IMG/VR virus record: IMGVR_UViG_3300043464_002149
DNA length: 64,000 nt
Source: a virus
Taxonomy: Duplodnaviria > Caudoviricetes
Reading direction: 5' to 3' (one strand)
Shown: positions 46,060 to 51,657 of the stretch, piece after piece
Layout of the letters: every line of letters starts with the position of its first letter
Numbering within the stretch: the first letter of the stretch is position 1
Translations under genes and position numbers: made by a program
The notes under the pieces: generated by a model
Seen by the model: only the letters and a program-made list of their open reading frames with translations
What the model was told of the DNA's origin: nothing
Databases searched by the model: none

Positions 46060-46476
46060 TTATTTAAGTAATAACATTGAAGTTGCGATTATCCCAACAA
46101 AAGAACCAACCTTATATAAAAAGGTCTTTCTTCTTTGTCCTTTTAGTTCTTTTAATAAACTTTCCGATTTAGATCTTTCTAAGTCAAATTGTTGATCTTT
46201 TTTGGTGATAATCAATTCAAGATTAGAAATCTTTTGATCTTTAAGTGTGTCTTTTTGTTTAAACAAACCTATTTGTTCGTCCTTAAGACCGATAACCTTA
46301 TTTAATTCCTTGATTTCCTCAACTGCGCCATCACCTTTTATTAAATCTTTAATTACCAGTTTTGCAACAGGTACCTTTAAAGGAACTAAAGTATCAATAT
46401 TGGTCTTTGTAACGGTCTGTGAAAAACTTTTCAAGGTCACTAAAGTTATAATTGTTAACAGAATCAATTTTTTCAT
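46060..46476 (-). CDS. signal-peptide coiled-coil protein with C-terminal TM (spanin-like candidate)
   Basis: MKKLILLTII...SFSQ signal, coiled coil, C-terminal hydrophobic segment. Confidence 0.5.
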   Translation of the reverse strand: MKKLILLTIITLVTLKSFSQTVTKTNIDTLVPLKVPVAKLVIKDLIKGDGAVEEIKELNKVIGLKDEQIGLFKQKDTLKDQKISNLELIITKKDQQFDLERSKSESLLKELKGQRRKTFLYKVGSFVGIIATSMLLLK

Positions 46477-46738
46477 GTGTTTGTGTTTTAATAATTGTTA
46501 TGTTTTTACTAACGTTATTGATGTCTCCATCAAGATTATCGATTTCCTTATCGATAGTTAAAATTTGTTGGGTTAAAGCTGTGTTTACGTCTTGTATAGA
46601 ATCAATTTCAGTTTGAATCGAATCTATCTTAGCATTATATCCAGCAACATCAGTTCTGATACTGTGACCTTGAAAAATGCTATAAGCGGCCAAACAAACT
46701 ATAATACCCAATAAAATGTTTTGTTTATTAATTTTCAT
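46394..46738 (-). CDS. N-terminal TM plus coiled-coil protein (i-spanin-like candidate)
   Basis: ATG at 46738 (MKINKQNILLGII); heptad IDSIQTEIDSIQDVN. Confidence 0.55.
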   Translation of the reverse strand: MKINKQNILLGIIVCLAAYSIFQGHSIRTDVAGYNAKIDSIQTEIDSIQDVNTALTQQILTIDKEIDNLDGDINNVSKNITIIKTQTHEKIDSVNNYNFSDLEKFFTDRYKDQY

Positions 46739-46766
46739 ATATAATAGCTTTCTATATAAATACAAA

Positions 46767-46787
46767 GAGGTCGCAAAAAGCGACCTC
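46767..46787 (-). terminator. GC-rich hairpin, probable terminator
   Basis: GAGGTCGC-N5-GCGACCTC perfect 8-bp stem with only a short T tract after it. Confidence 0.6.
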
Positions 46788-46813
46788 AAGTAAGACCTTG
46801 TGATTAGTTATTG

Positions 46814-47581
46814 TTAGTATTTTGTTCCGCAGTGTGGACAGAACTTATGGTTATCTTTTTTACGTTTCGCACCACACTCTGTGCAATAAACGACCAAATC
46901 CTCTATAACAAGCGGTCTGGTTGATTGTGGTTTAATTTTCCACCAATTCGTCTGAAATGGGAAAGTATAAAATGACGAGTTATCATATGTGAATGATTGA
47001 CTTGAATTTGATCCCTTTTCCACTCTACCAGTTTCAAGGCTCCTTAATGAGTTTGTGTTAACAGTCCCACTAGTTAACGAAGTGTTGTAAAAGGTACTTG
47101 TACTTGATGTGGTAAATGTTGCGTTACCATAATAAGGACTACCGGTTGTTGTGCTTCCCCAACCAAAATTTGGATTATTAATTGTTACAGTACCACTATT
47201 AAAATTATATGATGATGTTTTTACCTCATCATAGAATTTAACAACCACATCACCATTATTAGCAATAGCTTGTTGTACTTCCTCATTATTCCCATTTACA
47301 ACGTATGTTTCAAACAAAAACTTCTTTGCCTCATCAAGGTATCTTTCGAGGAATACGCGTTCACCAGGACGAAGAATAATACCATTACCGATGGAATTAC
47401 CGTTCATCTCGATTTTTGCTAAAACTTTATTTTGTGTGGGATTGTAAAGTTCGATTTCGAACTCATCACCGTTGTTAAGATATACGGTGTCAATGTGCTG
47501 TTTTAATCTTTGTTTACCTTTGGTAATGAAAGATTGTGGCACAGCAAAACCAGTTGTGTTAACTGAAATTCTTCTGTTCAT
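46814..47581 (-). CDS. hypothetical protein with C-terminal zinc ribbon
   Basis: CTECG...FCPHCG at the C-terminus; N-terminal beta domain (FEIELYNP, LRPGERVFLERYLD); S/T/N-rich linker. Confidence 0.75.
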   Translation of the reverse strand: MNRRISVNTTGFAVPQSFITKGKQRLKQHIDTVYLNNGDEFEIELYNPTQNKVLAKIEMNGNSIGNGIILRPGERVFLERYLDEAKKFLFETYVVNGNNEEVQQAIANNGDVVVKFYDEVKTSSYNFNSGTVTINNPNFGWGSTTTGSPYYGNATFTTSSTSTFYNTSLTSGTVNTNSLRSLETGRVEKGSNSSQSFTYDNSSFYTFPFQTNWWKIKPQSTRPLVIEDLVVYCTECGAKRKKDNHKFCPHCGTKY

Positions 47582-47589
47582 TTCCTTAT

Positions 47590-47680
47590 ATTTTTTTTGT
47601 ATTTGAACCCGAATTCGCTGGTATCAATTCCAACTCAAATGCCACAAGGACACTTCCGATTCAACCACAAGGTCTAATAA
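47590..47680 (-). ncRNA. candidate structured 5' leader RNA
   Basis: Minus-strand hairpin AUUUGAGUU/GGUUCAAAU plus GAAUU/AAUUC with G-U pairs; GC-richer than the surrounding intergenic DNA. Confidence 0.4.
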
Positions 47681-47698
47681 TAAGTATATAAAAAACAT

Positions 47699-47730
47699 AA
47701 AAAAAAGGAAAGTTAAAAACCTTCCTTTTT
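47699..47730 (-). terminator. intrinsic terminator after clpP
   Basis: AAAAAGGAAGGTT-TTT-AACTTTCCTTTTTTT; the G-U pair fits the minus strand. Confidence 0.8.
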
Positions 47731-47755
47731 AAAAAAAAACGTGAATACAACTAAC

Positions 47756-48430
47756 CTATTTTTTCTTTTTAACAATTTCATCAATAATACCGTATGCTAA
47801 TGCATCTTCAGCAGATAACCACAAATCTCTAGATGCGTCTTGCATTACTTGCTTTCCATCCTTATCACAATAACCACCCAATAAATCAAAAAGTAAATTA
47901 TTAAGTTTTTCCCATTCAATCATATCGATCTTAGCATCTTGAATGTTCCCGTGAAATCCACCACTGGATTGATGCAACATGGTTCTAGAAAATCTAAGAG
48001 ACCCTCTTTTACCTTTTGTTCCGGCGCCTAATAAAATAGACCCCATCGAAGCTGCCATTCCTGTATTAATTGTTCTAATATCAGATGTAATGTATTCCAT
48101 AACATCAACCATTGATAGACCAGATTTAACTGAACCACCTGGGCTGTCAATGTGCATGGTAATATCATTATTATCTAAACTATCCAAGAACATTAACTGA
48201 GCTTGAACAACAGTTGACATGTGATCGTTTACCTCACCTGCCACCCAGATAATTCTTTCCATCATTAATCTACTGAACACATCCATTACTGTTACATTCA
48301 ATGATCTTTCCTCAAGAATGTATGGTGTTAAACTGCTCTCAATATTTTTATTGAAATTGTGTAAGTCTAAAGAAGAGATTCCTCTATCTTTCGCATAAAG
48401 ACCAAAATGTCTTAAATCTTTTTGATTCAT
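47756..48430 (-). CDS. clpP: ATP-dependent Clp protease proteolytic subunit
   Basis: DVFSRLMMERII, IDSPGGSV, catalytic Ser in GMAASMGS, His in MLHQ, Asp in RDLWLSAEDA..YGIIDEI. Confidence 0.95.
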   Translation of the reverse strand: MNQKDLRHFGLYAKDRGISSLDLHNFNKNIESSLTPYILEERSLNVTVMDVFSRLMMERIIWVAGEVNDHMSTVVQAQLMFLDSLDNNDITMHIDSPGGSVKSGLSMVDVMEYITSDIRTINTGMAASMGSILLGAGTKGKRGSLRFSRTMLHQSSGGFHGNIQDAKIDMIEWEKLNNLLFDLLGGYCDKDGKQVMQDASRDLWLSAEDALAYGIIDEIVKKKK

Positions 48431-48505: not shown

Positions 48506-49327
48506 ATGAATATGCTTAAATTTAAAAATGTAATTAATGAAATGATGGTTAGTTCCCTTCCTAGTCAAAAATTATTAAGATGGTTTCTAGATAGGGTTGA
48601 TCATACTTTTGTTTTTTTTGATACCGAAACAACTGGTTTGGATAGAAACCCATCTGATAAGCCGATTAACCAGTTGACACAAATTGGCGCCATTGCAACT
48701 CAAATCAATGGTGAAACATTACGTTTTTTTGAGTTGGATAGATTTAATATAAAAATTAAATTAAATGATGATTTGAGGGGCCAAATGCAAGATGAACCAG
48801 ATGCCCCAGAAGATCCTGAAAGCCCTGAATATAAAAAATGGTTGTTTGGTACTAAAAAAGGTATTTTAAAGTATAACCATTATGATTTAGAAAATTCTGA
48901 ATCTTTTGAAGAAGAAAGAGAGGCACTTAAAAAATTCGAAGCATTTTTAAGAAATTATGATAATGTCACTTTAATTGCTCACAACGCACCGTTTGATTTA
49001 AAATGGATAGAATTTCACGAAGCATTTAAGGATAGCACTGACGAAATAATCGATAGTATAGATTTCTTTAGGAATTTTTTCTTCCCAATATTAGGTATGT
49101 TGGCTAGAGACAAAGCTAAATACCAATATAAGTATGATCAATTTAAGTCAACTAGTAATGACAATAAATCAGCAGCACTAGGTAATATCGCAGCCGGATT
49201 TGCAGATGAGGTAAACCAATTAAAAGCAAAATTAAAAGGTGCTCATGATGCTGTTGTCGACTGCGAAATAACCGTGGATGTGCTTGAAAAGGGGTTATTG
49301 ATGGTATATCAACATTTAAATGATTAA
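48506..49327 (+). CDS. DEDDh 3'-5' exonuclease (DnaQ-like)
   Basis: ExoI FFDTETTGL, ExoII LIAHNAPFD, ExoIII AHDAVVDC; the start may be 48512. Confidence 0.9.
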   Translation: MNMLKFKNVINEMMVSSLPSQKLLRWFLDRVDHTFVFFDTETTGLDRNPSDKPINQLTQIGAIATQINGETLRFFELDRFNIKIKLNDDLRGQMQDEPDAPEDPESPEYKKWLFGTKKGILKYNHYDLENSESFEEEREALKKFEAFLRNYDNVTLIAHNAPFDLKWIEFHEAFKDSTDEIIDSIDFFRNFFFPILGMLARDKAKYQYKYDQFKSTSNDNKSAALGNIAAGFADEVNQLKAKLKGAHDAVVDCEITVDVLEKGLLMVYQHLND

Positions 49328-51657
49328 CTAATCCCTTTTGAAATATAATCAATCGAAGAAACGTTTTCCTCTTTTTTAACCATGATCATGTTATCAGACC
49401 AGTTCCTAATCAATGGATTGTGTGAGATAACAAAGATATGTTCAAAGTAGTTTTTGATTTTTTTAAAGAACTCACCAACCATATCTAAATTCTCATCAGC
49501 AATTTTACCAAAGACTTCATCCATAACAACAATATTTGGTTTAGGTAATGAAGATACTTTAGTAAGAACGCTTCTTAATGCTAATGACGAAATTGTTCTC
49601 TCATAACCAGATCCAGAAGTTAATGGTTTAACAACTCTTGTTTCAGAATCAATCATGAGAAATTCTAATTCGTTTTTATCATTAATGTTTAATTCTAAAT
49701 TGAAGTAGCAGCTATCTGAAAGTAATCTACTTAGTTCTTGATTGATAAGTGGTATCATGTTTTTCAAAATTGTTTTTGAAATACCGTTTTTACCATATGT
49801 CATTAAGTAAACCTTAAACACCCCTTGAAGTTCTTCTTCCGCTTTAATCTTTGTGATTAACTCGTTACAAAGTTTTATCTTTTCCTCCATTGCTGTGATA
49901 TTCATTTTGTTTCTTTCAATTGTATTGTTCGAAACACGTATATCAGCATTAACAGTTTCTAGTTTAGTTCTAAGAGACAATAACTCACCATCTATTTTTT
50001 GATTTTCATCTAACTTCTTTCTGTTATTCTCATAGTTATCTAACTTGGCTTGTTTAAGATTGATTTCTAAATCCTTTTGATCCGCTTCGAGTTCATAACG
50101 AGCCTTTCTAAGTTTGTTTCTCTCATAATTGTCAAACTCAGACTTAAGTGATTCAAACCCGTCTGATTGCTTTTTTAAAGCGTCAAGTTCGGCTTGTTGT
50201 TCATCAGCACCAGAAGATACTTCCTGAATTTCTTTTTTTAATTTTTCAATCTCGTCAGTGTGATCAACTTCATCCAAAGCTCTTTTACAAGTTGGACAAA
50301 TTTTACCCTCTTCTAATTGCTTAACAAGTTTTTCTTTCTCTGTTTTTGTATGTTTAAACGCAACAATTAATGAATAAACATCACCCATTTTCTCCTTCAA
50401 TACTTTGTGATCATCTTCACTATAGTATTGAGAAGGTTCTTTAACATCAATAGCCTCTGCATTTCGTTTGCTAGTTCCTTTTTGTGTCTTTAAATCTTCA
50501 ATTTCACGTTGAAGAGATGTTGGATTAGTTCTAATTAATTCTTGATCAATATCATTTGATCTTAAGCCTAGAATTAATTCTCTCCTGTCTTCTAACTCTT
50601 TTAATTTATTTGCGTAATCAACTAAAAGATTAGTGTGTTCAAAAATATCATCTTTTGAGTTTTCAATACTATTGTTACTTGCTTCAATGTCTGCTTCAAG
50701 TTGTACAATATTATTAGTATTGCTAATTAATTTTCTAGACCAATCGTTATAGATCTCTTTACAGATTTCTTCTTTTTGTTTTAAACTTTCCAAACCTAAA
50801 AACTTAGTAAGGATTTGCCCCCTAGCTGTTGGTTTAGATTCAATCAATTCCTCTAGGTTATAACCTGTAGTAAGAATAGTTGATAAGAAATCTTCTTGAG
50901 TACCAATCGCCGAAGCAATAAAAGTTTCAGTTTCTCTTCTCTGTTCTCCGGTTAGATTTTCTAATTCACCATCTTCCTTTTCTTTATAGAATTCTAAATC
51001 ACTTTTAACAGTGTACTCACCAGATCTTGATTTCTTTCTAGTCAGTGTTCTAGATATCACATAGTTTTCACCATCGATTGTGATGTAACCTTTTACAATT
51101 ACTTCATCATCGTCAGTAAACTTATTAAAAATCTCCCCATTGGTTTTTGTTTTAGTTGTTGCATTGAAGAACAAAAACATTAATAGATCAACACTAGATG
51201 TTGACTTACCACCAAAATTTCTAGGATTAGATTCAATAACAGTAATACCATTCAATTCCGTAAAGTCGATTGAATTGTCTTTACCAAAAGAAAGAAAATT
51301 AGAAAATTCTACTTTTTTGATAAACCATTTGTTGTATCTTACTTTATTCTCATTGATCTTATCGATTTGAGAATTAACACGATTATCTAACCTATCCAAT
51401 AATTCCCATTTGATATTGACTTTGTTTTCACTTAAGAAATCCTTCATCAATGTTTTCTGGTACTGGTGGTCCAATATGTTGTCAGTAACTTCTAGAGTCT
51501 TAAGCTTGGTATTCTGTTTTTGACTAAGCGTTTTTGTAATAACCTGTACATGTGTTGCATTATACTTGTTTTGAAAGTATGTTTTAACACGTTTAATTCT
51601 TTCAGGGGTGAAGTTTTCTGCAACGTCTTCCCACTCAACTTTAATAAAAGGATTCAT
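49324..51657 (-). CDS. sbcC: SbcC/Rad50 (gp46-like) ATPase with ~110-aa N-terminal extension
   Basis: FSNFLSFG, Walker A NFGGKST, zinc hook CPTC, signature SGSGYE, Walker B VVMDEVFG, H-loop VISHN. Confidence 0.92.
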   Translation of the reverse strand: MNPFIKVEWEDVAENFTPERIKRVKTYFQNKYNATHVQVITKTLSQKQNTKLKTLEVTDNILDHQYQKTLMKDFLSENKVNIKWELLDRLDNRVNSQIDKINENKVRYNKWFIKKVEFSNFLSFGKDNSIDFTELNGITVIESNPRNFGGKSTSSVDLLMFLFFNATTKTKTNGEIFNKFTDDDEVIVKGYITIDGENYVISRTLTRKKSRSGEYTVKSDLEFYKEKEDGELENLTGEQRRETETFIASAIGTQEDFLSTILTTGYNLEELIESKPTARGQILTKFLGLESLKQKEEICKEIYNDWSRKLISNTNNIVQLEADIEASNNSIENSKDDIFEHTNLLVDYANKLKELEDRRELILGLRSNDIDQELIRTNPTSLQREIEDLKTQKGTSKRNAEAIDVKEPSQYYSEDDHKVLKEKMGDVYSLIVAFKHTKTEKEKLVKQLEEGKICPTCKRALDEVDHTDEIEKLKKEIQEVSSGADEQQAELDALKKQSDGFESLKSEFDNYERNKLRKARYELEADQKDLEINLKQAKLDNYENNRKKLDENQKIDGELLSLRTKLETVNADIRVSNNTIERNKMNITAMEEKIKLCNELITKIKAEEELQGVFKVYLMTYGKNGISKTILKNMIPLINQELSRLLSDSCYFNLELNINDKNELEFLMIDSETRVVKPLTSGSGYERTISSLALRSVLTKVSSLPKPNIVVMDEVFGKIADENLDMVGEFFKKIKNYFEHIFVISHNPLIRNWSDNMIMVKKEENVSSIDYISKGIS

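Follow-up and report, generated by a model that had tools for sequence, protein, structure and literature searches.

What does it mean when a single phage gene is bracketed by two segments that are complementary to each other? The gene considered here (47581..46814, minus strand) lies in a 64,000-nucleotide (nt) stretch of the IMG/VR virus record IMGVR_UViG_3300043464_002149 (Duplodnaviria; Caudoviricetes), hereafter called the window. The sequence AGACCTTGTG occupies positions 46793-46802 on one side of the gene, and its exact reverse complement is found at 47666-47675 on the other. Such an arrangement raises the question of whether the repeats act in DNA or as the partners of an RNA structure. 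The observations described below make it very probable that the repeats form an RNA helix, designated P0, which joins the 5' end of the mRNA to bases just past the stop codon. As judged from sequence comparison, P0 is a real conserved long-range helix; with the new structured leader next to it, it constitutes a variant of a rare known mRNA architecture, and the structural part of this proposal is well supported.

On the coding (minus) strand, the leader segment AGACCUUGUGGUUG (47675..47662) pairs with the trailer segment UAAUCACAAGGUCU (46806..46793) over 14 contiguous base pairs (bp), 12 of them Watson-Crick and two G-U, with a calculated energy of -19.1 kcal/mol. This confirms an initial sequence-only reading of the locus, in which a 14-bp complementarity between leader and trailer had been noticed, with G-U at both of its non-Watson-Crick positions. 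P0 is the strongest leader-trailer helix among the 62 open reading frame (ORF) models of the window. Its length of 14 bp is reached by 0.8-1% of leader/trailer shuffles and by 1.2% of the actual segment pairs obtained when this geometry is moved along the window. With ~60 genes in the window and a chance rate of ~1%, roughly one such gene is therefore to be expected per window, and for the window taken alone the helix is not beyond chance. Chance as the cause of P0 was rejected solely through the comparison of genomes, the data from the window being insignificant. The runner-up among the ORF models is an SbcC-like gene (49324..51657, minus strand) that is bracketed by UUGAUGGUGUGUU and GAUAUACCAUCAA (13 bp, -15.1 kcal/mol); the 3' partner of this bracket falls inside a convergent exonuclease gene, and the bracket is probably a chance occurrence.

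According to blastn searches with the neighborhood and tblastn searches with the protein, the locus belongs among uncultured phages with genomes of 460-640 kb, together with the Prevotella Lak phages. The helix was tallied in 97 distinct pairs of leader and trailer from homologous loci of uncultured large phages. The leader was searched from 130 to 60 nt ahead of the start codon and the trailer from the stop codon to +55, and a helix was counted if it was uninterrupted and its energy was -12 kcal/mol or lower. Such a helix was present in 80 of the 97 loci, in 37 sequence versions, and four more loci contained one of between -12 and -9 kcal/mol; when the trailers were shuffled, the threshold was reached in a single locus of the 97. 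Where strand positions were listed, the 5' strand began ~92-107 nt ahead of the start codon, and the 3' strand mostly began 6-18 nt after the stop codon. On this comparative evidence, the conservation of P0 across genomes is far beyond chance. The sequence-only reading had proposed a leader-trailer RNA helix closing a self-contained unit, and had named homologs without complementarity or compensatory change as the observation that would speak against it. The 80 loci and the compensatory changes described below bear the proposal out.

The closest relatives, 31 IMG/VR loci with both flanks available and 60-84% protein identity, retain a helix of 12-16 bp at equal distances from the start and stop codons in all but one case; in the remaining locus (L030), a substitution in the trailer shortens the helix to 9 bp. 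In these loci, the ~115 nt from a promoter-like box, TATACTTA, to the start codon are almost invariant, while the sequence farther upstream and the terminator stems downstream differ. The 3' strand of P0 is likewise invariant or covarying between loci next to terminator stems that differ. All 12 core pairs are invariant within this group, clade A, and covariation was not scorable there (0.050 observed vs. 0.049 in shuffles).

Compensatory change became visible at greater distances. In clade B, whose proteins are ~30% identical to that of the window, the helix is found at the same place and is built from other sequences, including UAGCUGUUCGCU / AGUGAACAGCUA, UAUAGCUGUUAU / AUAACAGCUAUA, and AUAGCUGUUCAA / UUGAACAGCUAU. 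An alignment of 17 whole mRNAs from this clade contained five P0 pairs that had changed on both sides; 93% of alignment cells were paired, compared with 34-42% in slid controls, and none of 500 shuffles was as good. In a third clade, the helix consists of UCUCACUUUGUU / AACAAAGUGAGA, and 80 further loci (42-84% identity) add more versions, e.g., AAACCUUGUGAU / AUCACAAGGUUU, UGAAACCUUGUUG / UAACAAGGUUUCA, and GAAACCUUGUUGAUG / UAUCAACAAGGUUUC. A matrix of swapped strands gave the same picture. For 10 of the 11 representatives, pairing of a leader with its own trailer was worth -13.8 to -19.9 kcal/mol; in the eleventh (L049), a mismatch interrupts the helix. Trailers from another clade gave -1 to -9 kcal/mol. 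One locus (L058) has lost both strands together and has kept the gene, the leader hairpins, and the terminator. That the pairing itself matters is thus indicated by a natural surrogate for mutagenesis, namely the 37 versions, the double-sided changes of clade B, and this double loss. In a locus of clade B (L054; positions 1300-1500 and 2432), the trailer strand ATAACAGCTA is kept, but the place of the leader is taken by the 3' end of a different ORF (...AYGFIWSYNKI), whose product we take to resemble the tail of homing-endonuclease-type proteins; an insertion may have parted the leader from the gene.

The nature of the imperfect positions points to pairing in RNA. Where the helix, inside or at its edge, departs from Watson-Crick pairing, the coding strand mostly offers G-U. 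Immediately next to the Watson-Crick run, 59 G-U-type cases were counted vs. 15 of the A-C type, these counts not being phylogenetically independent. Wobble pairs are exchanged in relatives, from G-U to A-U and from G-U to G-C, which upholds the earlier suggestion that the G-U positions favor RNA pairing. In addition, the 5' strand of P0 abuts an RNA structure that covaries independently of it.

This second structure is the leader itself. RNAalifold applied to 38 diverse leaders returned a Y-shaped three-way junction in which an outer stem, P1, encloses two hairpins, P2 and P3, and 12 of the 19 pairs of this structure exhibit compensatory double changes. The leader of clade B has the same architecture and also covaries. 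The sequence-only reading had seen a long G-U-rich hairpin before the start codon; the leader is indeed structured, and its actual form is the three-way junction. At its full 14 bp, P0 uses in its inner 2-3 pairs bases that also belong to the outer pairs of P1, and in its working form it may therefore comprise 12 bp stacked on P1. Folded alone, the leader, which is 94 nt long in the window, is thermodynamically ordinary (z = -1.31). The strength of the constraint on it is apparent from the syntenic loci L025 and L085, in which ClpP, encoded by the adjacent gene, is up to 96% identical and the bracketed protein only 60% identical. The 94 nt of the leader have hardly changed in these loci, which indicates that constraint acts much more strongly on the leader than on the protein. 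A covariance model of the leader gave a single match in the window (92 bits, the leader of the window being part of the training alignment), with no second copy above noise in the 64 kb, and weakly recovered the leaders of distant homologs (L062, E = 4e-6; L063 and L034, E = 0.003-0.006). The Rfam comparison that had been suggested at the outset was carried out on 46300-48000, and the best matches (11-21.5 bits, E = 0.25-10) lay below the gathering scores of 38-97. 

Two other pairings in the leader were considered and rejected. The second copy of the P0 core, GUCCUUGUG, which had been described as a repeat, is present in the window; in relatives the corresponding stretch reads CCUUGAG, CCUCGUG, CCCAGAG, or CUCAGUG, and because it varies so freely, it is not a conserved repeat and belongs to the variable loop region of P2. 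The duplicated CCUUGUGG, with its second CCUUGUG, was therefore discarded as an alternative pairing register, the copy not being conserved and the comparative data arguing against it. A local closing helix, UUGUG with UACAA, appears in the minimum-energy fold of the leader alone; it was paired in 75% of cells vs. up to 82% in slid controls and showed no covariation.

P0 also dominates models of the entire transcript. In the modeled ensemble of the 916-nt mRNA, the pairs of P0 have probabilities of 0.75-1.0 and the A-rich region around the start codon is unpaired, and the 5' strand is likewise paired in full-length models of seven other representatives. In four metatranscriptome studies of freshwater or rivers, contigs were found that match the body and trailer of this gene in the phage and its relatives, and one of them continues into the terminator of a relative, which suggests that the protein family is expressed in nature. 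These contigs, from runs chosen by this gene, cover only 46794..47622 and thus reach the trailer and not the 5' strand of P0. Circularization of the RNA, which had been raised as a possible purpose of the bracket, is unsupported. No back-joint indicative of circular RNA was found in four metatranscriptome runs, in which a lone joint skips 277 nt, although these are contigs and the negative result carries little weight.

It is likely that the gene gives rise to a monocistronic mRNA that is closed end to end by P0 beside the Y-shaped leader, and that this closure protects complete transcripts. The gene would be transcribed as its own unit from the promoter-like TATACTTA box to an intrinsic terminator, with transcription presumably starting at the first paired base. 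The first 12-14 nt of the mRNA would then pair with a segment of the 3' untranslated region (UTR) to form P0, which would abut the Y-shaped leader, followed by an unpaired A-rich start region carrying a Shine-Dalgarno (SD)-like AAGG. A paired 5' terminus stabilizes mRNA. The closed molecule would hide its 5' end from 5'-end-dependent decay and, by analogy with the hbs mRNA of Bacillus subtilis, may shield nearby endonuclease sites; as the 3' strand is synthesized last, such protection would be reserved for complete transcripts.

The hbs mRNA is the closest known case. Its 5' UTR is structured and contains 14 nt that pair, at -19 kcal/mol, with a perfect complement located just upstream of the terminator (PMC5737220). 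This interaction restricts cleavage by RNase Y and ties stability to intact ends, as confirmed with compensatory mutants (Braun, Durand & Condon 2017, PMC5737220). The phage mRNA has the same contiguous complementarity between 5' UTR and 3' UTR upstream of a terminator, and its P0 is almost equal to the hbs helix in length, energy, and placement. The two differ in that the 5' strand of hbs lies downstream of two leader hairpins, whereas that of P0 would lie at the extreme 5' end, and in that the phage leader is a three-way junction specific to this gene family. They also differ in the kind of evidence, which is mutagenesis in one species for hbs and natural covariation in ~100 phage lineages, known here through sequence, for P0. 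In the icaR mRNA of Staphylococcus aureus, the two UTRs of one molecule likewise pair with each other, which controls the fate of the mRNA (PMC3868564). Complementary segments likewise bracket a whole gene within one transcript in the leader-trailer stems of ribosomal RNA (rRNA) operons; those stems are longer, are substrates of RNase III, and surround a non-coding RNA, whereas the phage helix of 11-16 bp surrounds a protein-coding gene with an apparent promoter and terminator of its own. In icaR, translation is reportedly blocked by pairing of the 3' UTR with the SD region, which also generates a site for RNase III; P0 differs in leaving the start region free in the models. The hok mRNA of the plasmid R1 hok/sok system forms a tac-fbi fold-back, a compact and stable state held together by pairing between its two ends, and the state of the 3' end decides translatability. 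Hok is a small membrane toxin under the control of an antisense RNA, and 3' trimming activates its mRNA. The phage mRNA is similar to hok in the pairing of 5' and 3' ends of the full-length molecule, and it is unlike hok in that the unit lacks a toxin-like peptide or an antisense partner, its product being a soluble-looking β-sandwich of 255 amino acids and no antisense promoter being evident by inspection. Word searches of the literature found no described phage equivalent, which is not proof of absence.

Several observations weigh against the proposal that P0 closes and protects the mRNA. Within clade A, because the 12 core pairs never vary, the helix is indistinguishable from a conserved sequence motif. 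An ACCUUGU core is kept across many lineages, which hints at an extra sequence-specific constraint beyond pairing. In the Lak phages, as in two further large-phage homologs (LR756508 and LR756504), no helix was apparent, and the covariance model of the leader found no match there either; the protein evidently does not need the helix, since it is absent from these homologs. The RNA evidence consists of fragmentary metatranscriptome contigs, which are unable to show transcript ends or to rank genes, and the protective function ascribed to P0 is argued from analogy.

The alternatives to a protective closure differ in the molecule on which the complementarity would act. At the level of DNA, the repeats could be the terminal inverted repeats of a mobile cassette, the recombination sites of an invertible segment, or the paired operators of a DNA-binding protein, and the gene does occupy differing neighborhoods across phage lineages (clpP synteny was found in 23 of the loci compared), while a pair of protein-bound sites would also change in concert. 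The unit contains no transposase or recombinase, more distant genes not having been searched for recombinases, and encodes a β-sandwich with a zinc ribbon or SHOCT tail. Homology does not end at the repeats but continues past the left one into the promoter-like box, the orientation is constant, with no flipped copy of the segment among the printed loci, and the G-U bias and the adjoining covarying leader described above are features of RNA. The mobile cassette that had been suggested as an alternative is thus disfavored, and action of the repeats in DNA is very improbable. If the pairing occurs in RNA, it might instead serve processing: P0 would form in RNA that reads through from clpP, and RNase III or another double-strand-specific nuclease would cut it and thereby release or destroy the mRNA. 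The geometry resembles that of the rRNA operon stems, the icaR pairing reportedly creates an RNase III site, and P0 could stack on P1, coaxially, and on the terminator hairpin. RNase III substrates usually comprise ~20 bp, about two helical turns, however, and no version of P0 has an uninterrupted helix outside the range of 11-16 bp, a short length for a classical substrate of the enzyme; moreover, a promoter-like box stands directly at the 5' strand and is preceded by the terminator after clpP. Processing, which the sequence-only reading had also entertained, is accordingly regarded as improbable. In a further alternative, the encoded protein or another phage protein would bind the closed RNA (P0 plus junction) and repress its own translation, much as T4 gp32 represses translation by binding its own leader. 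Conservation exceeds the needs of pairing both in the junction nucleotides (UUGAG, between P2 and P3) and in the ACCUUGU core, and many family members carry a zinc ribbon. Clade B nevertheless retains both P0 and the Y-shaped leader with SHOCT in place of the zinc ribbon, and structure searches with the generic immunoglobulin (Ig)-like sandwich found no nucleic-acid-binding relative, so that autoregulation by the encoded protein, as proposed initially, is left unsupported and such an operator is extremely improbable.

A subtler possibility concerns translation. The 5' strand of P0 contains CCUUGUG, which could pair with UAUAAGG at the start region in nascent or truncated RNA and block initiation; capture of the 5' strand by the trailer would then free the start, and complete mRNAs alone would be translated. 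This CCUUGUG-UAUAAGG helix was paired in 90% of cells in the 38 leaders vs. 39-50% in slid controls, although it was derived from the same sequences and the A/U-rich region inflates pairing counts. It includes one covarying pair (UA 16, GU 6, GC 4), and one of 500 shuffles was as good. AAGG is shared by the trailer and the start region, and it is nearly invariant in A-type leaders, within a nearly invariant UAAGGA located 4 nt before the AUG of the gene (window 47584-47592, minus strand), although an SD-like 4-mer of any kind occurs upstream of only seven of the 62 ORF models in the window. In modeled folding, the 5' fragment forms the alternative helix in three of eight representatives, in which the full-length model does not, whereas the probability of this helix is ~0 in the sequence of the window itself and in four other representatives, and clade B has no AAGG or evident equivalent. 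A licensing switch of this kind is considered unlikely. The same doubt applies to its combination with closure in a three-part "completeness sensor," in which the 5' end would mask the start, a start-mimicking trailer (both containing AAGG) that is made last would unmask it, and full-length RNAs alone would be both translated and protected.

The encoded protein belongs to a phage-specific family with at least 539 relatives in IMG/VR, which share the N-terminal β-sandwich and an invariant ETGRVEKG motif and in which the linker, rich in serine, threonine, and asparagine (S/T/N), is highly variable in length. The AlphaFold model (mean pLDDT 64) contains an Ig-like β-sandwich at residues ~16-119, completed by strands 181-188 and 210-218, and otherwise a disordered S/T/N-rich linker and the zinc ribbon. 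The latter matches Pfam PF13240 at 24.8 bits vs. a cut-off of 25 and is replaced by a C-terminal SHOCT domain in clade B. Searches of Pfam and PHROGs revealed nothing beyond the zinc ribbon or SHOCT tail, and a Foldseek search against the PDB gave no match at E <= 0.001; the best VIA-align Z score was 6.7, among generic Ig-like, MSP, or PapD-like sandwiches, and the ESM Atlas returned solely viral "hypothetical protein" clusters. The finding of P0 does not disclose the role of the encoded protein.

For bacterial-type mRNAs, end-to-end pairing has been described in a small number of cases (hbs, icaR, and hok), each in a single species and each established by mutagenesis. What the phage locus adds is such a layout backed by natural compensatory evolution across ~100 uncultured large-phage lineages, together with a new structured leader that is a candidate RNA family for curation. 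The diversity of its sequence versions also makes it a ready test set for the effect of mRNA closure on decay and translation. The SD-poor gene starts of the window and the relatedness to Prevotella Lak phages suggest that the likely hosts are Bacteroidota, in which initiation is largely independent of the SD sequence.

The limits of the transcription unit are given with the other features in Table 1. The gene is flanked by clpP (47756..48430; Pfam CLP_protease, E = 2e-54) on one side and by the gene for a small coiled-coil membrane protein on the other, and the two hairpins that had been thought to isolate it, one after clpP and one GC-rich after the trailer, were both located (47730..47702 and 46787..46767). 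The unit looks autonomously transcribed because a promoter-like box stands at the 5' strand and a terminator after clpP lies ahead of it.

Table 1. Features of the bracketed gene and its flanks (positions in the window).
Feature	Position	Strand	Remarks
Terminator-like hairpin after clpP	47702..47730	minus	13-pair stem followed by a U tract; upstream limit of the unit
Putative promoter-like -10 box TATACTTA	47681..47688	minus	5 nt upstream of the P0 5' strand
P0 5' strand AGACCUUGUGGUUG	47662..47675	minus	Probably the extreme 5' end of the mRNA; conserved or covarying with the trailer in 80/97 distinct loci
Y-shaped leader	47604..47663	minus	Three-way junction; RNAalifold on 38 diverse leaders
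P1	47663..47654 with 47613..47604	minus	Encloses hairpins P2 and P3
P2	47653..47649 with 47643..47639	minus	Hairpin within P1
Second core copy GUCCUUGUG	47651..47643	minus	Last 3 bases of the P2 5' arm, loop, and first base of the 3' arm
P3	47634..47630 with 47621..47617	minus	Hairpin within P1
SD-like UAUAAGG	47584..47590	minus	In the A-rich, otherwise unpaired start region; possible alternative partner of the P0 5' strand
Coding sequence	47581..46814	minus	255 amino acids; Ig-like β-sandwich, disordered S/T/N-rich linker, C-terminal zinc ribbon
P0 3' strand UAAUCACAAGGUCU	46793..46806	minus	Begins 8 nt past the stop codon; 5 nt separate its end from the terminator hairpin
Intrinsic terminator after trailer	46758..46787 (hairpin 46787..46767)	minus	8-pair GC-rich stem and U tract, 5 nt past the P0 3' strand

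The same boundaries recur among relatives. Conservation in clade A begins at the promoter-like box, which reads TATACTTA or TATATTTA, and in the remaining clades a TATA-rich box precedes the longest paired run by 0-6 nt, that of clade B being ATATATA(A/G). Every printed set of flanks contains a promoter-like box upstream and a terminator or U tract downstream, and in nearly all relatives a terminator follows the trailer strand, with stem sequences that differ. Past the terminator, a few bases before the start of the next gene, clade A carries TTTG-TATTTATA and clade B TATATATA (window 46740-46766, minus strand; loci L003-L031 and L040-L057). Both motifs are similar to the promoter-like box ahead of P0, and they may represent the promoter motif of this phage group.

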